Below, one piece after another: positions 9,740 to 60,056 of a stretch of 64,000 nucleotides of DNA (the stretch's first letter is position 1; each line of letters starts with the position of its first letter). The notes below the pieces were generated by a model. The model saw nothing but the letters and a program-made list of their open reading frames with translations, had not been told where the DNA came from and ran no database searches. The stretch is from Escherichia coli. GTDB lineage: Bacteria > Pseudomonadota > Gammaproteobacteria > Enterobacterales > Enterobacteriaceae. The stretch lies in assembly GCA_009729775.1 (NCBI GenBank), contig GCA_009729775.1_4081.1, one strand, 5' to 3'. A program made the position numbers and the translations under genes.

Positions 9740-9779
9740 ATAATAGCAAAGGGACTGACCGGAGTCAATCCCTTTTTTT
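9740..9779. terminator. stem-loop cassette GGGACTGACCGGAGTCAATCCC with flanking T-run; TTGACT box inside the stem
   Basis: Hairpin 9751-9772, T7 run on plus side; on minus strand TTGACT-N17-TATTAT promoter geometry. Confidence 0.55.
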
Positions 9780-11673: not shown

Positions 11674-11701
11674 GGGACTGACTGGAGTCAATCCCTTTTT
11701 T
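11674..11701. terminator. stem-loop cassette GGGACTGACTGGAGTCAATCCC plus T-run
   Basis: Same cassette as 9740-9779. Confidence 0.55.
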
Positions 11702-11709
11702 AATCTTTT

Positions 11710-12294
11710 TTATCGTGTTATAGTTATCGCGTTAACATCACGTTTTTTATAGTACTGATTCCAGATATTGCGGGTTAAACCGTAATCAAGTACTTTAATC
11801 AAGCCGTTGCGATCCTGGCCGATATTCTGTTTTCTGATATCTCTTATCGTTAGTGTGGATAATGTATCATCAACGTGATTGAGAGCATCAGCGAAATGGT
11901 GATGGCGTTCAATAGTGTTACGTTTAATATTGTACTTTAACTCATTACATGCGGTTACGTGCTTTACACTGCCTTTGCTTGCAGTACTCAAACGATCCAT
12001 AACAATAAACAGATTATCAGGATCGCATAAATGCATATGCACCTTGGCAAAGAACTGTTTAAGGTGCGGACGGTCATAATCTAAAAAATTCCATACCTTA
12101 CATTCAGTTTCATTTTGTTCTACACCCGCATCACAATTCGCGACCTTAATCACTAACCGATCATTTAAAGCGAATACAATACGGGAAGAACCCGCACCGA
12201 CGATCTCCAGTCCAGCTAACCGACAAGCTGAAAGGATCTCTTTGTTGGTTTCCATTGCATGAAGTGAACGGATGAATTTAGTATAGTTACGCAT
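11710..12294 (-). CDS. putative protein-kinase-like protein (about 194 aa)
   Basis: Start adjusted to MRNYTKF... with AAGGAG RBS; GAGSSRIVF glycine-loop-like, VIKV lysine, DIRKQNIG catalytic-loop-like and LDYG (DFG-like) motifs. Confidence 0.4.
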   Translation of the reverse strand: MRNYTKFIRSLHAMETNKEILSACRLAGLEIVGAGSSRIVFALNDRLVIKVANCDAGVEQNETECKVWNFLDYDRPHLKQFFAKVHMHLCDPDNLFIVMDRLSTASKGSVKHVTACNELKYNIKRNTIERHHHFADALNHVDDTLSTLTIRDIRKQNIGQDRNGLIKVLDYGLTRNIWNQYYKKRDVNAITITR

Positions 12295-15032: not shown

Positions 15033-15061
15033 GGGACTGACCGGAGTCAATCCCTTTTTTA
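15033..15061. terminator. stem-loop cassette GGGACTGACCGGAGTCAATCCC plus T-run
   Basis: Same cassette as 9740-9779. Confidence 0.55.
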
Positions 15062-19087: not shown

Positions 19088-19115
19088 TGGCTGACCGAAG
19101 TCAACCACTTTTTTT
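19088..19115. terminator. stem-loop cassette GGCTGACCGAAGTCAACC plus T-run
   Basis: Variant of the cassette that recurs at 45-60 kb. Confidence 0.55.
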
Positions 19116-47734: not shown

Positions 47735-47767
47735 TAATTATAGCAAAAAGGGCTGACCGAAGTCAAC
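47735..47767 (-). terminator. dual terminator/promoter stem-loop cassette
   Basis: GGGTTGACttcgGTCAGCCC with UUCG loop, U-run, TTGACT in stem and TATAAT 18 nt downstream (minus strand). Confidence 0.6.
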
Positions 47768-47775
47768 CCTTTATG

Positions 47776-48135
47776 TTATTCTAAGTCACTCATAGTACTA
47801 ATAGTTAATCCCATTTCTTCTGCAATGTTGCATAGCAAACCAACAGCATTACGAAGAATATCAGTGTTGTCCACCGAGAATGATGAGTTTTCATTTACAG
47901 TTGAAGACTCAATGTAGTACTCAAAATAACGAGAAGTTGAACGCACAACTTTAACACCTTCATACTTCTGTAGTTCAGAGTTGACACGTTCGATGAGTAA
48001 ATCTTCCAGTGCTCGATAGTCACCATTCATTCCACGTTTCCACCCATCAGCAGGACGGAAATAAAAAGTTTTTGTACGTTGAATTGTTGAGATTGTTAGT
48101 GGGTTGTATTCCGCGATTTCACTTAAAGATGTCAT
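47776..48135 (-). CDS. hypothetical protein (119 aa)
   Basis: ORF track. Confidence 0.6.
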   Translation of the reverse strand: MTSLSEIAEYNPLTISTIQRTKTFYFRPADGWKRGMNGDYRALEDLLIERVNSELQKYEGVKVVRSTSRYFEYYIESSTVNENSSFSVDNTDILRNAVGLLCNIAEEMGLTISTMSDLE

Positions 48136-48241
48136 GTTGTATTCCTCATTTGGTGATGTACATAATACAGAAATATAGAACAGGTGTCAATGTTTATACC
48201 TCAAATATCCAAATACTTTGGTGTAGCACATACTACATCAA

Positions 48242-48436
48242 CTAATCCTCGCTGAAGACAACAATAAGGAATGACACGAACAATGCCGCATAACAAGGAG
48301 CTATCTTCATGTACCACGGGACTTCATAATACCATGTACCCAATTCATCCCACGAAAAGAGTATACTCAAACCGAAGCCGATTAGCGATAGTACAATAAA
48401 AGAAATCCAGAAACGCTTTGAATATACTAATAACAT
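48242..48436 (-). CDS. small membrane protein (64 aa)
   Basis: Two hydrophobic helices. Confidence 0.5.
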   Translation of the reverse strand: MLLVYSKRFWISFIVLSLIGFGLSILFSWDELGTWYYEVPWYMKIAPCYAALFVSFLIVVFSED

Positions 48437-48474
48437 ATTATGTTCCTTTGTGTGACCGAAGTCAATCCTTTCCT

Positions 48475-48990
48475 TTAATAATTATTCATTTCATCTTTGA
48501 TTTGTTCTTCAATTTCGTCAAACATATCAGTACTAGATTCTATATTACTACTTACGTTCTGCATATCTTTAACGTACTGTGGACATTCAACATCAGTAAA
48601 CTTATACCACGTAGGCTTCATCTGGAGCTTCTCAATCAAACGATCACGAGACATTTTAATCTCTGACTCCGTTGGTACGTAGTCATTACAAAACTCAGCA
48701 GGGAAGCCGCTAATGTCGTTTACTTCAGTGTTTTGAATCTTCATACCACGACGCAGACATTCGTTGACAATATCAATATGACGCTTCTGTAAGTACAGTA
48801 ACTTGTCGTAGAAAAATGTTACATGACCTGAACCTAACAGATAAGTACTGTTAATTTTGAAATCACGTACACGCTTACGTGCTTGAACGTGTTTTTGTAC
48901 AGCACCAAATACACGTGGGAGTTCACGATATTCAGCCATCAGATGTTGGTCAGCAAGTTCTTTAACGTGTACTAAGTTAATGCGTGTCAT
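48475..48990 (-). CDS. denV: endonuclease V (pyrimidine-dimer DNA glycosylase/AP lyase), T4 DenV homolog (171 aa)
   Basis: N-terminus [31 protein letters not shown]...KRVRDFKI...[10 protein letters not shown]...PTWYK is near-identical in pattern to T4 endonuclease V. Confidence 0.9.
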
Positions 48991-49018
48991 GTATTCATCC
49001 TCTCGTTTCGATGAAATG

Positions 49019-49051
49019 ATTATAGCAAAAAGGGCCGACTGAAGTCAACCC
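49019..49051 (-). terminator. dual terminator/promoter stem-loop cassette
   Basis: Hairpin GGGTTGACttcaGTCGGCCC, U-run, TTGACT-N18-TATAAT on minus strand, upstream of denV. Confidence 0.6.
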
Positions 49052-49144
49052 TTTTTTTCTTTCAATCAAACATAGTCTACCAGAATGTACCATGCGATGG
49101 TGATTAGAACAAAGAATCATACACTTCTTCATTGTTTAATCCAT

Positions 49145-49414
49145 TTATTCAACAATCCCCAACTTCACAATCTCATACCCGTCCAGATAGCCGTAGGAAC
49201 ACTCAGGTGTTTCATAAGATGAACCATCATGGATGCCTTGGCATTGACTTTTGGAATTCTCAAGCAATCGTTGCAGTACTGATACGTCATCAAGAACGTA
49301 ATACAAGTTAGCATATAGGTCCGTTACAATACAGTACTCCAACATATCAAATGTATCAATCGAAATTTCAACCTTAGCAAATCGTTTCTTTTCTTTATTA
49401 TACAGTGCGTACAT
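49145..49414 (-). CDS. hypothetical protein (about 89 aa)
   Basis: Start adjusted to MYALYNKEKKRF... abutting the stop of the upstream gene. Confidence 0.5.
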   Translation of the reverse strand: MYALYNKEKKRFAKVEISIDTFDMLEYCIVTDLYANLYYVLDDVSVLQRLLENSKSQCQGIHDGSSYETPECSYGYLDGYEIVKLGIVE

Positions 49415-49415
49415 A

Positions 49416-49787
49416 TTAATCTCCATAATCAAGTTTAACTAACTTACCACCCAGATACCCAAAGTTTTCTGGCTTCGCATCTGAATAGAAGAAGTCAGTA
49501 CTTAACTCTGAATTCAATGCTAAAGCACACAACTCCACCCAAAATAAACCCCTATGTTGTACTGGCTTACAACGTTTCTGTACAGTTACTAGTCCAGTAC
49601 ATGATGACCACAACGTAGGGCAGATACTACTATCACTACGATTGGAGTACTGCATCCACGAACGTTCATTGAGGTTAGCTATCATCCCTGTTAAGAATAG
49701 CTTCCAACTTTTAAAGGTTGGAATCTTGATAGCATATTCCCCAATGAGGATAACAGTTCGGGTTGCACCTTTCAAATCTATATTCAT
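49416..49787 (-). CDS. putative kinase-like protein, truncated form (123 aa)
   Basis: EYAIKIP lysine motif, SDAKPEN catalytic-loop-like and KLDYG DFG-like motif at the very C-terminus. Confidence 0.35.
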   Translation of the reverse strand: MNIDLKGATRTVILIGEYAIKIPTFKSWKLFLTGMIANLNERSWMQYSNRSDSSICPTLWSSCTGLVTVQKRCKPVQHRGLFWVELCALALNSELSTDFFYSDAKPENFGYLGGKLVKLDYGD

Positions 49788-49791
49788 AATG

Positions 49792-49968
49792 TTAGTACGA
49801 ATCAGATTCCCAGTACTCGATTGCTTCTTTCAGCAATTCTTTAGCACGTTGTTTTGCAATGCGAGCGGGGAACTGATATGTGTACATTAACTGACGCTTC
49901 ACTTCATTCAGTGAAAGCTGTTCATGGTACAGTGCATCCATCAGTCGATTACGAGTACGTAGTTTCAT
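49792..49968 (-). CDS. small basic protein (58 aa), not in ORF track
   Basis: Hand translation MKLRTRNRLMDALYHEQLSLNEVKRQLMYTYQFPARIAKQRAKELLKEAIEYWESDSY; AAGGATA RBS. Confidence 0.45.
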   Translation of the reverse strand: MKLRTRNRLMDALYHEQLSLNEVKRQLMYTYQFPARIAKQRAKELLKEAIEYWESDSY

Positions 49969-49979
49969 ATAAGTTATCC

Positions 49980-50534
49980 TTATTTCAAAGAATCATAGTA
50001 AGCAGTGTCAAAGATTGGAGTCATAATAACATAGTCAATACGGTCAATGTAAGTTGAACTCCACATTTCTGGTTTGTCATATAACTGACGCTCGCGTTCA
50101 TTCATACGAGTCAGTACTTCTTCCAATTTACTACGTGAATCCATCAATGTATTACTCGAACCATAAGTGAAGTACTCAGTCCAATGATATTCATATTCAG
50201 TACTGATAGATTGAATAGTACCATCTTTGAAATGAGCTAAGGCATAACCTTTCTCTACAAAGTTATCAGGTGGAAGAACACCATCTGGATTAGTTTTCAA
50301 TGCTTGTGCTAACTTTTCTTTAATTTCAGTTAACGTGCATACTGAACGAATGTTCTTCAGGTTTGATACTTGAAAATCACTGTACTTTCCAAAGAAAAAG
50401 ACACGCCAATCTTTAGGTTCATTATCAGATACGTTAGCATCAGGGTGATAGGCGAGTAAACGAAGAAGGCCAGCTTTGTGACCGTTAATGTAGATTTCAT
50501 GGATGTGGTTAGCAGTTTTCTTAAAAGTAATCAT
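49980..50534 (-). CDS. hypothetical protein (184 aa)
   Basis: ORF track. Confidence 0.65.
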   Translation of the reverse strand: MITFKKTANHIHEIYINGHKAGLLRLLAYHPDANVSDNEPKDWRVFFFGKYSDFQVSNLKNIRSVCTLTEIKEKLAQALKTNPDGVLPPDNFVEKGYALAHFKDGTIQSISTEYEYHWTEYFTYGSSNTLMDSRSKLEEVLTRMNERERQLYDKPEMWSSTYIDRIDYVIMTPIFDTAYYDSLK

Positions 50535-50610
50535 GGTAGTTCCTCGATTGTAGGGATGAGAAGTTCATCCCCTTGATAAGCATTATACAGTACTGAATGT
50601 GTTTGTCAAC

Positions 50611-51006
50611 TCAAAATAAATTCATTTCATGTGCGTATTGTGGTTCAAGATAAGATAAGTTTTTGAAACTGTCTTTCAATTCTGCATCATCTACGTACAC
50701 AGTACCAGGTACATTCCCCATAGTGAAGCCAACCCAAACAGTCATGTTTCCAGTTCCTAAGCGGGGCATTGATAGCGTCCCGTCAGGTGAAACATCAAAC
50801 GCTACACTAAAGTCATTCGTTACAACTTCCGACCCATTTTCCAGAATAATACAACCACGTTCTTTAAGCTTCTGAATGTGGATAGCAGCCTCTACAGCAC
50901 GTTTAAAGTTATAATAAGACTCTTTATCCTCGAACATTGATTGTTTAACCAGACGCTTGTTTAGCTCGGTTACTTTGTGCATTTGACGCATTACTTCAAC
51001 TCCCAC
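50611..51006 (-). CDS. hypothetical protein (131 aa)
   Basis: ORF track. Confidence 0.6.
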   Translation of the reverse strand: MGVEVMRQMHKVTELNKRLVKQSMFEDKESYYNFKRAVEAAIHIQKLKERGCIILENGSEVVTNDFSVAFDVSPDGTLSMPRLGTGNMTVWVGFTMGNVPGTVYVDDAELKDSFKNLSYLEPQYAHEMNLF

Positions 51007-51245
51007 AGTTGTAGAATTTCATAAGAGCCTGGTGGTGCTGGATTGATAATCTCAGGGTATTCAGTACTGTTAGGATTACCACCAGCATTGAACTCAGCAA
51101 GTAATAATTCGAGTTCATTCCTATCATGTACAACAAACACGCAATATCCAGTTCCTTCTTCAAGAACTGTAGTTGACCCCGCACAATCCCATACGGTATC
51201 AATACATAATAATTCTTTAGTGTTTTTATTACGCAACGCAAACAT
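50991..51245 (-). CDS. hypothetical protein (84 aa)
   Basis: Preferred over the overlapping 50996-51298 frame because of protein-like composition. Confidence 0.45.
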   Translation of the reverse strand: MFALRNKNTKELLCIDTVWDCAGSTTVLEEGTGYCVFVVHDRNELELLLAEFNAGGNPNSTEYPEIINPAPPGSYEILQLWELK

Positions 51246-51254
51246 ATATGTCTC

Positions 51255-51599
51255 CTATCGATTCGGCATATTCTTTCGTAGTCGCAAGAGAAATTCAACC
51301 ACTGACCATGTTGTAATGAAGGCTATATAAGTTGCAAGGAATCCAGTAAGAATAAATGCAACCAGCGTACTACCATTTGGGGAATCAGTTTTAATGCCGA
51401 TGACACCATCGGCTACAGTGAAACATGTAGCCATTAATGTGTAACCTACGTACAACACAAAGAAAAACTCATTCTCCATTGAAGGATAGAAACGGTTAAA
51501 CACTTTATAAAATTTAAAGTACAGTAGGATTATACCAACAAAGGCATAGAATGTAAACAGTGTTGTTATAATATATGAGATTAGGTTCAAATTATACAT
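51255..51599 (-). CDS. small membrane protein paralog (about 114 aa)
   Basis: LYFKFYKVFNRFYP motif; C-terminal LRLRKNMPNR. Confidence 0.6.
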   Translation of the reverse strand: MYNLNLISYIITTLFTFYAFVGIILLYFKFYKVFNRFYPSMENEFFFVLYVGYTLMATCFTVADGVIGIKTDSPNGSTLVAFILTGFLATYIAFITTWSVVEFLLRLRKNMPNR

Positions 51600-51600
51600 A

Positions 51601-51948
51601 TCAACGCTCCGGTAGATTATCACGTAATGTTTTAATTCGATGATACATTTTCATACCAATATTACCAAAGATACCATATCCAAGTACTAAAATGTATGCA
51701 ATAAGCATAGTAATAATTACTATAGTGCCAAAACTATAATGTACACTACTGATACCCATTGTAGTTTCAACGATTATTTGAGAAACTGAAAGAATCAAAA
51801 GTACAACTACAATTGGATGATTTGGGTACATTCGGTTGAACAACGTTTTGTACTTAAAGAAGCACAGTACTCCACCGAATAAGAAGTACACAATGTAAAT
51901 GCAAGCAACAGCATAGGCAAACATGTTAGTGTAATAAATCATTACCAA
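51601..51948 (-). CDS. small membrane protein paralog (115 aa)
   Basis: CFFKYKTLFNRMYP; C-terminal LRDNLPER. Confidence 0.6.
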   Translation of the reverse strand: MVMIYYTNMFAYAVACIYIVYFLFGGVLCFFKYKTLFNRMYPNHPIVVVLLILSVSQIIVETTMGISSVHYSFGTIVIITMLIAYILVLGYGIFGNIGMKMYHRIKTLRDNLPER

Positions 51949-51951
51949 TCC

Positions 51952-52290
51952 TTACTTTTCAGGGATATTAGAACGCCATATATCAATGCGATGAACTAGT
52001 CCAAAGAACAACCATACTGGAACGGCAGCTATCATAACAAAAAATGAAAACCCAGTCAACACCGATACCAGATTTAATTCATCAGTACTATACCCACATA
52101 TCAGTACTTCTAATATTCCCCACGTACATGCACAAAACATCAAGAATGAAATTGGGGCATCATAGTAGATACGTTCATATAAAGTAGTGTATCGGAAGAA
52201 TGCAATAATGTAGCAAAACATATAATACACCCAAACCAAAGATACTACATAAAATGATACTTTGTTTATTAATTCAAAATATTGTTCCAT
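51952..52290 (-). CDS. small membrane protein paralog (112 aa)
   Basis: AFFRYTTLYERIYY; C-terminal WRSNIPEK. Confidence 0.6.
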   Translation of the reverse strand: MEQYFELINKVSFYVVSLVWVYYMFCYIIAFFRYTTLYERIYYDAPISFLMFCACTWGILEVLICGYSTDELNLVSVLTGFSFFVMIAAVPVWLFFGLVHRIDIWRSNIPEK

Positions 52291-52292
52291 TT

Positions 52293-52574
52293 TTACCCCA
52301 ATATATATTCAGAGAGTAATGTATTAGCTTCATCTTTGTTCTTAAGGTAATACATGTAATATAGATTCGGTTCACCATCTTTAGAACTCAAATCGAAGTA
52401 CTTTAAACTATGTACTTTCATAGTAAAAACAAATAATGACTTAAAACCAATCTCACCGTACTTAATAAACAGTTCATCCAAATGAATGTAACTTTTTGAT
52501 TGTGATAGTTCTTTCACATCGGCTTCAATTTCATCTAAACGAATCTTGCCAATTAAGTTTTTAAATGAACGCAT
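52293..52574 (-). CDS. hypothetical protein (93 aa)
   Basis: ORF track. Confidence 0.55.
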   Translation of the reverse strand: MRSFKNLIGKIRLDEIEADVKELSQSKSYIHLDELFIKYGEIGFKSLFVFTMKVHSLKYFDLSSKDGEPNLYYMYYLKNKDEANTLLSEYILG

Positions 52575-52578
52575 TATT

Positions 52579-52992
52579 TTATCCTTTTACACAATTTGTC
52601 ATAATGTAAACACGTTTAATAAAAGAACTTTCATACACGTACTTCAACTTGCCATTCTCACGTAAGCGGTGGAAAACATCACCTTTGTTAGTACTCCATG
52701 TGGAACCAGTACTAGCATCGACATTAGCCATCGACCCACTGGTTACATTAATACCGTACTTAAAACTAAAAGTATCCCCGTCTTCAACTAATGTCACAGG
52801 TGCACTACGTTCATGTTCAAATACAAGTTTAGAACCAATCATCTCATATGATTTCAATTTACACTTCATTACACCCATTTCATCTTGAGTGGGGAGATTT
52901 CTTTCAAATATATCAGACACTTCGTTTGCAGAAGCAAATGAACTCATTGTCATTAATACAATACTAGTTACAATTAAAATAATATTTTTCAT
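52579..52992 (-). CDS. secreted protein with signal peptide (137 aa), paralog of 53761-54180
   Basis: Signal peptide MKNIILIVTSIVLMTMSSFASA; shared GD-FSF-Y ... VF-R-RE-G-LKYVYES block. Confidence 0.65.
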   Translation of the reverse strand: MKNIILIVTSIVLMTMSSFASANEVSDIFERNLPTQDEMGVMKCKLKSYEMIGSKLVFEHERSAPVTLVEDGDTFSFKYGINVTSGSMANVDASTGSTWSTNKGDVFHRLRENGKLKYVYESSFIKRVYIMTNCVKG

Positions 52993-53049
52993 AGTGTATT
53001 TGTCTCTTTGTTTATGGTTTATTAAGAATACACCAGAACATCAGTTCTG

Positions 53050-53691
53050 TCAATAAAAAACTGGATCTTCTTCAGTAATTGGTATTTCTCTACGCACATC
53101 ACACGAAAGAGGATCAGTAATGAATACATTCCCATCTTTATCCATCATCACATTACTTGAATGAATGTCTGGTACAAAACGCCCGTGAAATTCTTTCATG
53201 ATGTTAGCAGCGACCGTTGCAATAGCAATCTCTTCAGAATTTCCACGCATATCATTCACTGAAGTTGCGTACTGACCAGCATGTGCATACGAATACAAAT
53301 CACCAATTTTAGTACTAACAAAGTCATCATAATTATTTTTTTGTTTAATTATAGGATAGTACTTGTCCATCTCATACCATCCAAAGTTTCCTTGTTCGTT
53401 TGCACTGTAGATCACTGGAAGAAACTTGGTTCCTGCGTTTTCAATGCAGTACTTTGCATAAGCACGAAAACCATCCCAGCGTGAAGTGGTTACTTTAAAT
53501 GCACGCCCAGGATAGTTTTTATGTTCAACTACTACAGAGTACATCCCCATTCCAAGCAAAGTAAGTTCAGCAGCTTTAACTTGTGGAAAGATTACGCGTT
53601 CAGCATAAGGAATATCAAACTCCATCGCACAACGAGTTTTTGATGGACGCAAAATGTCAATTAAAGTTTTGAATATTTCTTGCTTAGTCAT
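53050..53691 (-). CDS. putative kinase-like protein (about 213 aa)
   Basis: Start adjusted to MTKQEIFK...; FVPDIHSSNVMMDKDGNVFITDP resembles the catalytic loop and metal-binding D of small-molecule/atypical kinases. Confidence 0.35.
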   Translation of the reverse strand: MTKQEIFKTLIDILRPSKTRCAMEFDIPYAERVIFPQVKAAELTLLGMGMYSVVVEHKNYPGRAFKVTTSRWDGFRAYAKYCIENAGTKFLPVIYSANEQGNFGWYEMDKYYPIIKQKNNYDDFVSTKIGDLYSYAHAGQYATSVNDMRGNSEEIAIATVAANIMKEFHGRFVPDIHSSNVMMDKDGNVFITDPLSCDVRREIPITEEDPVFY

Positions 53692-53719
53692 TACTTTATC
53701 CTCTGTAGTTAATATCAAC

Positions 53720-53753
53720 ATCATAACAAAAAAGGCTGACCGAAGTCAACCCT
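53720..53753 (-). terminator. dual terminator/promoter stem-loop cassette
   Basis: GGTTGACttcgGTCAGCC hairpin, U-run, TTGACT-N18-TATGAT on minus strand. Confidence 0.55.
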
Positions 53754-53760
53754 TTTATTA

Positions 53761-54180
53761 TCATTTACAGTTTTCTATAACTATTGCACGTTTTAGTATT
53801 TTACTTTCATAAACATACTTAAGATGACCTTCTTCACGAATACGATTGAACACATATCCTAGTTTATCTTTTAGTACTGAAGCGGTATCAATGTCAAGAT
53901 TAACTTCAACCCCTCCTGTTAATTTAACTTTATATGTAAAGCTAAAAGCATCACCAGATTCAACCAATGGGACTACTTGTTCATACGTATTCAACATAAC
54001 TCGTTCATCATCAACTAAATTATATATTACTATATCACAAGTTTTTACCCCAATTTCCTCTAAGGTAGGAGCATTGTCTACTATAACATCTTTTACTGTA
54101 TTTGCAACCTGTTTAGCATCTGCTGCATATACATTAAAACTAAAAAGTACTAAAATAATACTTAAAAAAATCTTTTTCAT
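53761..54180 (-). CDS. secreted protein with signal peptide (139 aa), paralog of 52579-52992
   Basis: Signal peptide MKKIFLSIILVLFSFNVYA. Confidence 0.65.
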   Translation of the reverse strand: MKKIFLSIILVLFSFNVYAADAKQVANTVKDVIVDNAPTLEEIGVKTCDIVIYNLVDDERVMLNTYEQVVPLVESGDAFSFTYKVKLTGGVEVNLDIDTASVLKDKLGYVFNRIREEGHLKYVYESKILKRAIVIENCK

Positions 54181-54189
54181 TATATATCC

Positions 54190-54519
54190 TTATTTTATTT
54201 TACACGTCATATCGGGTTGTGCTGGTTTATTATTTTTAAACGGATTAGGTTTTTTATCTTTCTTTTTATCTTTTAAAGGTTTTTTGTCTTCTTTTTTATC
54301 TTTATCTTTGTCTTTTTTATTGTTATCAGGTTCGGTTGGAGTATTACATTGTGCTGGTGATGGGTTCGTCGGGTTACAGCTATTGTCGGGTGGGAGTTTT
54401 ACTTCTTTACAATTGTAAAATAGTAAACTTTTATTTGTGGTTAAATTATGAAAACGATAGTTACGTTCATTATTATAATAAATTTTTTTAGTACTTTCAA
54501 TGTCATTACACATTGCCAC
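54190..54519 (-). CDS. Lys/Asp-rich low-complexity protein (109 aa)
   Basis: KKDKDKDKKEDKKPLKDKKKDKKP run. Confidence 0.45.
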   Translation of the reverse strand: MAMCNDIESTKKIYYNNERNYRFHNLTTNKSLLFYNCKEVKLPPDNSCNPTNPSPAQCNTPTEPDNNKKDKDKDKKEDKKPLKDKKKDKKPNPFKNNKPAQPDMTCKIK

Positions 54520-54523
54520 GGAA

Positions 54524-54775
54524 TCACCGAAACTCTTTTTCTATTCCGAGTACATCCGTCTTACGCTCAGATAGTATACCTGAAGTATATGAATCTTTGT
54601 TGTCAAACGCATTAAATCCAATAGTTCTGTCGGTGTCGTGTATTATTCCTTTTGTGTATGAGGTAGTATAGAACTCCCCATTTCTGAAATCCTGCCTTGC
54701 TACGGAGCAATGATAATCTGCACCATAAGCAGTACTGGAAAATAATACAATTCCAAATATAATATATTTTTTCAT
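54524..54775 (-). CDS. secreted small protein with signal peptide (83 aa)
   Basis: MKKYIIFGIVLFSSTAYGA. Confidence 0.6.
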   Translation of the reverse strand: MKKYIIFGIVLFSSTAYGADYHCSVARQDFRNGEFYTTSYTKGIIHDTDRTIGFNAFDNKDSYTSGILSERKTDVLGIEKEFR

Positions 54776-54802
54776 TGTAATCCTCTTCTTAATTCCTCTT
54801 TT

Positions 54803-54834
54803 GTATTTACAAAAAAAGGCTGACCGAAGTCAAC
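54803..54834 (-). terminator. dual terminator/promoter stem-loop cassette
   Basis: GGTTGACttcgGTCAGCC hairpin plus U-run; TTGACT in stem. Confidence 0.55.
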
Positions 54835-54845
54835 CTTTAGTTTTA

Positions 54846-56390
54846 TCATTTACCGTATTTGCTCATGATGTCCTTTTCCCAATGAGTTACGTTACCGTTA
54901 TCGTAATCTTTAAAGGAATTATCAAGAGTAGTTAATGCATATTCGTATGCTTCAGGTGATTCAATGTCAACATCATCAGCACCATTTACTAAATCAGTCC
55001 ATGCTTTTTGTAGTTTACGAGCATTTTTACCAACATTACTTTTAATCCAACTAATGTTTTTGTTGATACTCTTATTATCAGCACCAGCTTTTTTACCAAT
55101 ATCGGATATCCACATCATTAGCTTTTGGAGTTCATGAATGGAGTTGTCGTTCATTTCACGATCTTTAGCCAATTCTGCTTCCATGCCATCAGTATCAGTA
55201 CCATCTTTAGAACCTACATCAATTCCATGTTTAGCTAATAGTTTACCAAGTTCAAAGAATGCTGCCTCAGCAGGGAAGTCATAACCTTTGTCTTTGTAGT
55301 TGTTCCATGCACTATCAAACTCATCTACAAATCGGTTGGCATAATCTGGATTGTCCACGAGAGCTTTGTACACTGCCATTGCATGTTCAAATCCTTCTTT
55401 GTCAGAACCAAACTCTCCCATTTCTGGACGATGAATGTAACCATCCATATCAACAGTATCAGGTAAATCATCATGAGATGTTTCAGCATCTTTCTGGTCA
55501 ACTGCACCTTCTTCATCTGCACGAACTAAGTAACCATCTTTTGATACTTTCTCACCATGTTCAGCTTCATACTTTTTCATAGTATTGAATGCAGAATTCA
55601 TAACAGTGATGAATCGAGACTTCTCACCTGGTGAGTAAGAATCTAATGCTGCTTTAATAGCATCATGTACTAATTGAATCTTATCATCTTTGCCTTCAAG
55701 ACGATTTTCTAACTTAGCAAGAACATTCTTAACTTGCTGGGCGTTAGCACGGTCTTCTTTACCTATACGGTTAACAGTATGGAGGATGCTTTCAAGACTT
55801 GCTTCTTCAGCAGTCGCTTCTTCTTGACCTTCAAGTGCACGCATGATAGTACTGAATACTTCAGTTGGTTCAGTACTGGTATTTCCACTCATTGCATCAA
55901 GTACAGCTTGTGCTTTGACTTTTAATTCTTCTTTAGGTACAGATTGCAATTCTTTCACAATACCTTGGATAAGTTGTGGTTTATTAGCAAAAATCTTACC
56001 TAACTTATCAGACAATTCTTTGACAGGGTTAACCGCCTTTGGTGCTTCTTGTTTTGGTTCTTCTTTCGCAGGAGCAGACTTTTCTTTTTCTTCACGTTCC
56101 ATATCAGCTAGGCGTTGTTTTTGTGTAGCATTAAGAAGTCCCAATGAATTAACATAACGTAGCTTTTCTAGCTCAGTCATGTTCTCAGTACTCTTAACTT
56201 CACCTGCTTCTGCGTTTGCTTTACCAGCTAGACCAGTTCCTTGGTTACGTGATCCACGTGAACCTTGACCTGCTTGATAACTATTTGGTCGGCGGTTGCG
56301 TTCACTCCATTTATCAGAGTGACCAGCCATGTTACCACCATTTTTATCAGTAAAATTACTTGGCATTTGATTTCTCTCCATAGATTTCAT
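54846..56390 (-). CDS. large charged protein (514 aa), function unknown
   Basis: ORF track; N-terminal LEKLRYVNSLGLLNATQKQRL block shared with 56636-57019. Confidence 0.7.
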   Translation of the reverse strand: MKSMERNQMPSNFTDKNGGNMAGHSDKWSERNRRPNSYQAGQGSRGSRNQGTGLAGKANAEAGEVKSTENMTELEKLRYVNSLGLLNATQKQRLADMEREEKEKSAPAKEEPKQEAPKAVNPVKELSDKLGKIFANKPQLIQGIVKELQSVPKEELKVKAQAVLDAMSGNTSTEPTEVFSTIMRALEGQEEATAEEASLESILHTVNRIGKEDRANAQQVKNVLAKLENRLEGKDDKIQLVHDAIKAALDSYSPGEKSRFITVMNSAFNTMKKYEAEHGEKVSKDGYLVRADEEGAVDQKDAETSHDDLPDTVDMDGYIHRPEMGEFGSDKEGFEHAMAVYKALVDNPDYANRFVDEFDSAWNNYKDKGYDFPAEAAFFELGKLLAKHGIDVGSKDGTDTDGMEAELAKDREMNDNSIHELQKLMMWISDIGKKAGADNKSINKNISWIKSNVGKNARKLQKAWTDLVNGADDVDIESPEAYEYALTTLDNSFKDYDNGNVTHWEKDIMSKYGK

Positions 56391-56413: not shown

Positions 56414-56444
56414 AGTATAAAGAAAAGGCTGACCGAAGTCAACC
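56414..56444 (-). terminator. dual terminator/promoter stem-loop cassette
   Basis: GGTTGACttcgGTCAGCC hairpin; TTGACT-N17-TATACT on minus strand. Confidence 0.55.
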
Positions 56445-56452
56445 TTATTTTG

Positions 56453-56595: not shown

Positions 56596-56629
56596 ATGAT
56601 ACAACAAAGGGCTGACCTTAGTCAACCCC
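56596..56629 (-). terminator. dual terminator/promoter stem-loop cassette (variant loop)
   Basis: GGGGTTGACtaagGTCAGCCC hairpin; T-run on plus side, TTGACT-N18-TATCAT on minus. Confidence 0.5.
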
Positions 56630-59838: not shown

Positions 59839-59870
59839 ATTATAACAAAAAAGGCTGACCGAAGTCAACC
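59839..59870 (-). terminator. dual terminator/promoter stem-loop cassette
   Basis: GGTTGACttcgGTCAGCC hairpin; TTGACT-N18-TATAAT on minus; stop codon of upstream gene lies in the stem. Confidence 0.55.
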
Positions 59871-60056
59871 TTTGTTTTGAAGTTCTTGAACTAATTGTCG
59901 TACTTCGTTAATATTTTTACACTGCTTTACAGTGAAGTAATCATACTTACGACCATAGGTTCTTGGGTCATCACCTTCCATATACTGCTGCACATCAAAG
60001 ATTTGTAAGTAGGGATGCTGCATAACACGAATATTACCACCTTGATAAATCAACAT
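59865..60056 (-). CDS. hypothetical protein (about 63 aa)
   Basis: Start adjusted to MLIYQGGNIRV... Confidence 0.45.
   Translation of the reverse strand: MLIYQGGNIRVMQHPYLQIFDVQQYMEGDDPRTYGRKYDYFTVKQCKNINEVRQLVQELQNKG

Follow-up and report, generated by a model that had tools for sequence, protein, structure and literature searches.

Three very small kinase-like proteins in a jumbo coliphage sequence, one of them from a widespread phage family that ends at the DFG motif

Can a protein chain that stops soon after its DFG-type motif be a complete member of the protein-kinase-like superfamily, or is it a piece of something larger? The question is posed by three genes, here called A, B, and C, in a stretch of 64,000 nucleotides (hereafter, the window) deposited as Escherichia coli DNA. 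The window is 95–98% identical to the Asteriusvirus jumbo coliphages 121Q, G17, Sharanji, and PBECO4, and its origin is a giant E. coli phage, an Asteriusvirus of the 121Q/G17/PBECO4-like type. The three genes are as follows.

11710–12294, minus strand: gene A, 194 aa, orthologue of 121Q gp308 and of Sharanji WNN14351.1
49416–49787, minus strand: gene B, 123 aa, orthologue of 121Q gp215
53050–53691, minus strand: gene C, 213 aa, orthologue of 121Q gp205 and of Sharanji WNN14432.1

The initial annotation had proposed small kinase-like proteins at exactly these coordinates, and three real open reading frames are present there. Their translations carry the expected motifs in kinase order, with two amendments to what had been described: C has D-P-L in place of D-Y/F-G, and the supposed glycine-rich loop of B, G-A-T-R, holds one Gly and is hardly glycine-rich. 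The statement that all three lack a canonical C-lobe holds, as the chains end 1 (B), 18 (C), and 22 (A) residues past the DFG-type motif, which leaves each of them without an activation segment (DFG...APE), helix F, or GHI subdomain. What the chains do contain are the elements of the protein-kinase-like (PKL) superfamily fold, namely five N-lobe strands and helix C, followed by helix E, the catalytic loop, and the strands that bear the DFG motif. The kinase-like fold claimed for the three was likewise borne out, in the case of A by profile matches to known structures and by homology to the B family (see below). A regular expression for the catalytic loop plus DFG-like motif matches 3 of the 364 stop-to-stop ORFs of at least 50 aa, namely A, B, and C, against a mean of 0.05 matches in shuffled ORFs; the expression was written post hoc, with the three sequences already seen, so the independent weight lies with the profile and structure evidence. 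Profile HMMs of the three families found no further paralogues within the window.

How the three proteins relate to one another depends on the sensitivity of the comparison. Pairwise BLASTP among A, B, and C gives no significant match, and the link between A and B appears only with profiles (hhalign 96.4%, E 1e-9, using a broad B-family profile). PHROG 4301 takes in both A (E 1.6e-42) and B (E 8e-44). No sequence link from C to either of them was found, profiles included. On this profile evidence A and B are homologous and form a second lineage, separate from C, and we regard A, B, and C as three separate and intact proteins of very small size within the protein-kinase-like superfamily.

The lineage of C can be named. 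Its motifs lie at these positions.

53545–53553, minus strand: loop GMG
53494–53496, minus strand: Lys66 of AFK
53152–53169, minus strand: catalytic loop DIHSSN
53107–53115, minus strand: DPL, followed by 18 residues
53104–53106, minus strand: Ser at the position of Ser216 in the T7 gp0.7 kinase (T7K)

GenBank records annotate a longer, 224-aa ORF for C that begins at 53724, but 53691 is preceded, at a distance of 8 nt, by a GAGGA ribosome-binding site and all homologues begin at MTK, which marks 53691 as the better start. C matches phrog_15752, which bears the T7 gp0.7 label (‘protein kinase; inhibitor of host transcription...’), at E 2.4e-90, as well as two other kinase PHROGs. A profile of 20 C homologues aligns with residues 61–230 of the 359 in T7 gp0.7 (hhalign 98.6%, E 7e-16), with the motifs in register (DIHSSNVM with DMHSGNIM, ITDPL with ITDPV). 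K77, D186, N191, and D204 (224-aa numbering) are invariant in the 20 C-family sequences; the Ser after D-P-L is replaced by Gly or Ala in most C relatives outside Asteriusvirus. C has no match in the Pfam copy that we searched. T7 gp0.7 itself has none there either, so the empty result reflects a gap in the library, and C homologues carry the precomputed assignment PF27024, an entry that is absent from that copy and that we did not find mentioned in the open-access literature. A search of PDB profiles with the C family returned nothing significant.

The alignment stops short of the shut-off (SO) DNA-binding domain, which is absent from C, in agreement with the published loss of this domain from the T7K homologues of the jumbophages G17 and Munch (PMC13645617). 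That study, a 2026 Nature paper (Bartolec et al.), already reports the jumbophage (G17) clade and finds the Val of the DPV motif to be less conserved in it, and the Sharanji genome paper (PMC11895373) names WNN14432.1 as a T7 kinase homologue. The family assignment of C is thus not new; by its sequence C is a T7K-type kinase domain without the shut-off domain.

Protein A has also been noticed before. Its motifs are as follows.

12181–12198, minus strand: loop GAGSSR
12145–12147, minus strand: Lys50 of VIK
12103–12105, minus strand: Glu64
11824–11841, minus strand: catalytic loop DIRKQN
11779–11787, minus strand: DYG, followed by a 22-residue tail

Several GenBank records label A orthologues ‘serine/threonine-protein kinase’ or ‘putative protein kinase’, and the authors of the Sharanji paper (PMC11895373) describe WNN14351.1 as a second protein kinase whose function was unknown to them. 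In Pfam, A reaches Pkinase and PK_Tyr_Ser-Thr with E-values of 6e-4 to 2e-3, below the curated cut-offs (17.9 and 19.7 bits for PF00069 and PF07714, where the gathering thresholds are 31.7 and 23.1); Pkinase is matched by 7 of the 12 members of its family. Searched against the PDB as a single sequence, A gives 73 matches, and as a profile 55, in both cases all eukaryotic-type kinases; the best profile match is MKK4 (E 2e-4), and the matches span helix E to beyond the DFG motif. PADLOC returned weak matches only, to its PD-T4-6 kinase models. The family is small, with 12 sequences of 191–203 aa, in all of which G35/S36/S37/R38, K50, E64, D152, N157, D170, and G172 are invariant, and the second residue past the catalytic Asp is R, S, N, or T, a variability also seen in atypical kinases. 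This evidence is weak but consistent, and suggests that A is what its annotation says, a putative kinase.

What, then, is B, the shortest of the three? Its features lie at these positions.

49758–49769, minus strand: loop GATR
49725–49727, minus strand: Lys21 of AIK
49665–49667, minus strand: Glu41
49464–49481, minus strand: catalytic loop DAKPEN
49422–49430, minus strand: DYG, followed by one residue and the stop codon

An HMM search that covered 1.84 billion representatives of 50%-identity clusters exhaustively found 1,206 relatives of B at E ≤ 1e-3, of which 639 at E ≤ 1e-10, nearly all of the 1,206 being 110–135 aa long. The 14 close homologues (45–66% identity) are 118–127 aa, and all 14 end one residue past L-D-(Y/F/A)-G; among the matches listed, the chain ends 0–1 residue past the motif in 88 of 123 family members with a recognisable motif. 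Among GenBank phage records, 118 contain a member of the family, nearly always labelled ‘hypothetical’; they come from Asteriusvirus, T4-like phages, Aeromonas and Pseudomonas jumbo phages, kuraviruses, and PaMx25-like siphoviruses. No kinase model, nor any covering model, in Pfam matched 132 family members, and the longer ones gave no informative fusion domain, one weak ABC1 match aside. NCBIfam yielded nothing useful, a PDB profile search with the family gave nothing significant, and PHROG 4301 is annotated as of unknown function. Our search of the open-access literature found neither a described family of phage mini-kinases nor PHROG 4301, although this is absence of evidence. Within the databases and literature searched, the B family thus has neither a functional name nor a description as kinase-like and ending at DFG.

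Across 132 diverse B-family sequences only three columns are invariant, Lys21, Glu41, and Asp120, and a further seven (G7, R10, P23, G34, N38, G65, and G110) are more than 90% conserved. The catalytic loop takes two forms, D-x-K-x-x-N in 77 sequences, including B itself, and E-x-K-x-x-S in 41; positions 103 (D or E) and 108 (N or S) co-vary, with almost no mixed forms. Such a paired swap, in which the catalytic Asp changes together with the Asn that binds Mg, is unusual.

This variation bears on whether B is an enzyme at all. Conceivably it is a module that binds or hydrolyses ATP, or else a pseudokinase: a catalytically dead protein or ATP-binding decoy that binds a host protein, for instance a defence sensor or a host kinase partner. 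The latter idea draws on the loss of helix F and the rest of the C-lobe, which normally anchors the catalytic and regulatory spines, on the roughly one third of the family that has Glu/Ser for the catalytic Asp/Asn, unusual for active kinases, and on the general knowledge that many small phage proteins are stoichiometric inhibitors. But the invariant trio is the ATP/Mg triad of Lys, Glu, and DFG Asp, the catalytic-loop Lys is retained in 120 of 140 sequences, and D/N and E/S change jointly, as expected of a constrained active site and not of independent decay. Given this conservation pattern we hold a pseudokinase role to be quite improbable. The invariant trio and the two co-varying loop forms point to a working nucleotide/Mg2+ site that is under selection, not to a decayed remnant.

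Is B whole? The initial annotation had noted an out-of-frame ORF directly after it, which is as described, and had taken B to be possibly split or truncated.

49145–49414, minus strand: 89-aa ORF downstream of B, phrog_8563, a family unrelated to B

This ORF begins 1 nt past the B stop codon, in another frame, with a GGAG ribosome-binding site inside the last codons of B, an arrangement that could suggest a split or frameshifted kinase, of which B would be the N-terminal half and whose C-lobe would be supplied by the ORF or by recoding. Against this, a length of about 120 aa and an end right past D-Y-G are kept across the 1,206 clusters, and the 89-aa ORF does not look like a kinase lobe but resembles a neighbouring small paralogue-like ORF. 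Nor is it found beside B homologues in other phages, and the gene that follows one distant B homologue does not resemble it; the genes after distant homologues are unrelated or absent. In a Salmonella lambdoid prophage the homologue stands alone between Rz and Nu1, with about 400 nt without a conserved ORF before Nu1, and it is solitary also in a kuravirus-like contig. When all neighbouring ORFs at 35 loci were clustered, no partner family was common across lineages besides denV, which recurs in two. We reject a split, truncated, or recoded B on the grounds of the conserved length and C-terminus, the unrelated phrog_8563 ORF, the standalone homologues, and the lack of a common neighbour, and we give that reading next to no credence. 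B is an intact gene.

AlphaFold models B with high confidence (pLDDT 90.3, pTM 0.80), and the model matches kinases over about 110 of the 123 residues, in the order beta1–3, helix C, beta4–5, helix E, catalytic loop, two short strands, and DYG. Modelled in this way, B has a kinase-like fold with five N-lobe strands, helix C, helix E, the catalytic loop, and two short strands, ending at DYG, and its family may represent the smallest kinase-like domain on record. Fold matches in BFVD are small uncharacterised phage proteins of 117–210 aa, among them a Ralstonia phage ‘protein kinase domain-containing protein’ and a 194-aa RaK2 protein that equals in length, and is possibly identical with, the RaK2 orthologue of A.

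The model does not by itself single out a protein substrate, as kinases of small molecules and of RNA are just as near to it in structure. B, and possibly A, might then phosphorylate small molecules or nucleic acids, or serve as an ATPase switch, with RNA, nucleotides, or a signalling molecule as its target; kinase-like folds that are not protein kinases are known, for example Bud32 in KEOPS and the archaeal tRNA 2'-kinase ArkI. B has no protein-substrate-binding lobe whatever, and some of its gene neighbours would suit a non-protein substrate. In the window the B-family gene lies just upstream of a homologue of the endonuclease V gene denV (48475–48990), on the same strand, as it does at five loci in contigs of PaMx25-like Pseudomonas siphophages; between these and the window denV is 38% and B about 29% identical, and the two are the only independent lineages with the pair, which could be a co-transferred cassette or a coincidence. 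In phage JS10 (2477–3854 of that locus) the gene stands 1 nt upstream of the RNA ligase gene rnlB, and in Tequatrovirus G4507 (2001–2842) and PhiZZ30 (2001–2841) it stands between ipI and a tRNA cluster; adjacency to rnlB and tRNA genes in these T4-like hypervariable regions is a weak lead towards an RNA-related substrate. The B loop D-A-K-P-E-N has, on the other side, the form of eukaryotic-type protein kinases, the best PDB sequence matches of B, though not significant, are all TTK, and B neighbourhoods are hypervariable and differ by lineage, with no neighbour conserved across the 35 loci. We consider a non-protein substrate unlikely but a serious alternative, and the most plausible of the departures from a protein-kinase-like role considered here.

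The best explanation overall, which we judge probable, is that A, B, and C are three intact mini-kinases in which the ATP/Mg site has been kept and the activation segment and helical C-lobe are absent, and for which we infer phosphotransfer. Each has kept its ATP-binding N-lobe along with the catalytic loop and the Asp that binds magnesium, but has no activation segment and no substrate-binding C-lobe, and all three would most likely serve as ATP-dependent phosphotransferases in host takeover or anti-defence. C probably works in the manner of T7K, by analogy with which it would phosphorylate host (and phage) proteins early in infection, on Ser, Thr, and Tyr with little sequence preference, so as to take over the host and disarm its defence systems, though untethered from DNA. 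A and B are predicted to bind ATP-Mg and then to transfer or hydrolyse the gamma-phosphate. With no substrate lobe, B might be promiscuous at an open active site, or might be completed by self-association or by a host partner, and the same choice between open-site promiscuity and a need for self-association or a host partner would apply to A. We know of no precedent for an autonomous enzyme with a kinase core that lacks helix F. A bolder proposal, tentative and to our minds possible rather than probable, is that the B family is an autonomous, active ‘half-kinase’, the smallest functional protein-kinase-like enzyme known, which ends at the DFG motif without a C-lobe, works through an open site or borrows a host protein as its lobe, and represents a widespread, unrecognised phage strategy for manipulating the host or its defences. 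The family does range over jumbo, T4-like, kuravirus-like, lambdoid, and PaMx25-like phages. In the virion proteome paper on phAPEC6 we found no mention of a protein kinase.

When might these genes be expressed? Directly upstream of C lies a hairpin with promoter-like hexamers.

53720–53752, minus strand: hairpin GGGTTGAC-TTCG-GTCAGCCT, directly upstream of gene C

It embeds a -35 hexamer, TTGACT, followed after 18 nt by TATGAT and then by the GAGGA ribosome-binding site of C, and by its match to consensus is a putative terminator/promoter-like element. A hairpin of the form GGRTTGAC-TYCR-GTCAGYCC recurs twelve times on the minus strand of the window, with 0 copies expected by chance.

9752–9771, 11675–11694, 15034–15053, 19088–19107, 47750–47769, 48449–48468, minus strand: hairpin copies 1–6
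49032–49051, 53733–53752, 54817–54836, 56426–56445, 56609–56628, 59852–59871, minus strand: hairpin copies 7–12

The 5' arm holds the -35-like TTGACT, and after at least some of the copies come a T-run and a -10-like hexamer; downstream of gene A the arrangement is TTGACT-17-TATTAT. The repeated element looks like a combined terminator and early-promoter cassette, and T4-type phages have promoter-stem-loop elements of a similar kind. Early expression of A, B, and C may be suggested by consensus promoter-like matches, but such matches are no more numerous than chance.

Several other features of the window and of the B family deserve record. Gene C is flanked by two paralogous proteins (52579–52992 and 53761–54180, both minus strand) of 137 and 139 aa, 39% identical (E 1e-32), with signal-peptide-like N-termini; a PHROG search gave no match for one and a weak match only for the other. 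Three tandem small ORFs (51255–51623, 51601–51948, and 51952–52290, minus strand) encode hydrophobic, multi-pass membrane-like proteins of 112–122 aa that have in common an F-x-R-x-Y-P motif and an N-x-P-E/N-R/K end, the last two being 24% identical (E 6e-11). A 109-aa ORF (54190–54519, minus strand) contains the Lys/Asp-rich low-complexity stretch KKDKDKDKKEDKKPLKDKKKDKK. Between the 89-aa ORF and denV, a 45-aa ORF (48995–49132, minus strand) with C-S-N-H-H-R-M-V-H looks like the remnant of an HNH endonuclease, and the related phages JP4 and UB have an annotated HNH endonuclease somewhere in the region that matches 48000–56000. The sign of the GC skew flips at about 28 kb and about 42 kb, which suggests a plus-strand-coded block at 28–42 kb between flanks that, in the stretches examined, have the sign of minus-strand coding. 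No tRNA genes were found anywhere in the window. Outside it, a metagenomic protein of 1,073 aa (P0071) consists of about 16 tandem repeats of some 50–60 residues, each matching the middle of the B-family profile (positions 51–101); this could reflect a tandem DNA repeat that was wrongly assembled or translated, or else a repeat protein built from a B-family fragment.

Promiscuous phosphorylation by phage kinases such as T7K disarms many bacterial defence systems (PMC13645617), and here one phage carries a T7K-type domain together with two members of a second, unannotated kinase-like lineage. C being known and A an annotated but uncharacterised putative kinase, the new part is the B family. Were B active, the lower size limit for a working kinase-like fold would fall to the N-lobe plus catalytic loop, without helix F or activation segment, which would be of interest for kinase evolution, minimal enzyme design, and phage counter-defence, and more than a thousand clusters of ‘hypothetical’ phage proteins would gain a functional label. 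Were it inactive, there would still be a large family of pseudokinase-like modules that preserve the ATP site.

Comparison with known systems sets the two lineages apart. The canonical protein kinase domain of Pfam (PF00069, PF07714) is matched by neither B nor C. C and T7K have in common a G-x-G loop, a (V/F)-K-V lysine, D-x-H-S-x-N-(I/V)-M, I-T-D-P in place of DFG, and a Ser after D-P-x, at the position of the autoinhibitory Ser216 of T7K; homologues of T7K occur elsewhere too, for example Salmonella phage JSS1_004. The two differ in length (213 versus 359 aa), C having no C-terminal shut-off/DNA-binding domain, and in the motif itself, D-P-L in C and D-P-V in T7K. Profile comparison detected no relationship of A or B to T7K (E 0.014 and 0.022). 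The entry for PHROG 4301 includes A and B members, but records neither their kinase-like nature nor the conserved truncation at the DFG end. Bud32/PRPK, the Rio kinases, and the archaeal RNA kinase ArkI, with which we found no sequence similarity, keep a helical remnant of the C-lobe and differ from B in gene context and organism. The OspG/NleH and HopBF1 proteins, minimal effector kinases of bacteria with no detectable sequence relationship to B, are type III effectors that work in eukaryotic cells, where OspG needs a host partner, whereas B is a phage protein. These effectors keep helices past the DFG motif; B stops one residue beyond it and is some 40–50 residues shorter.
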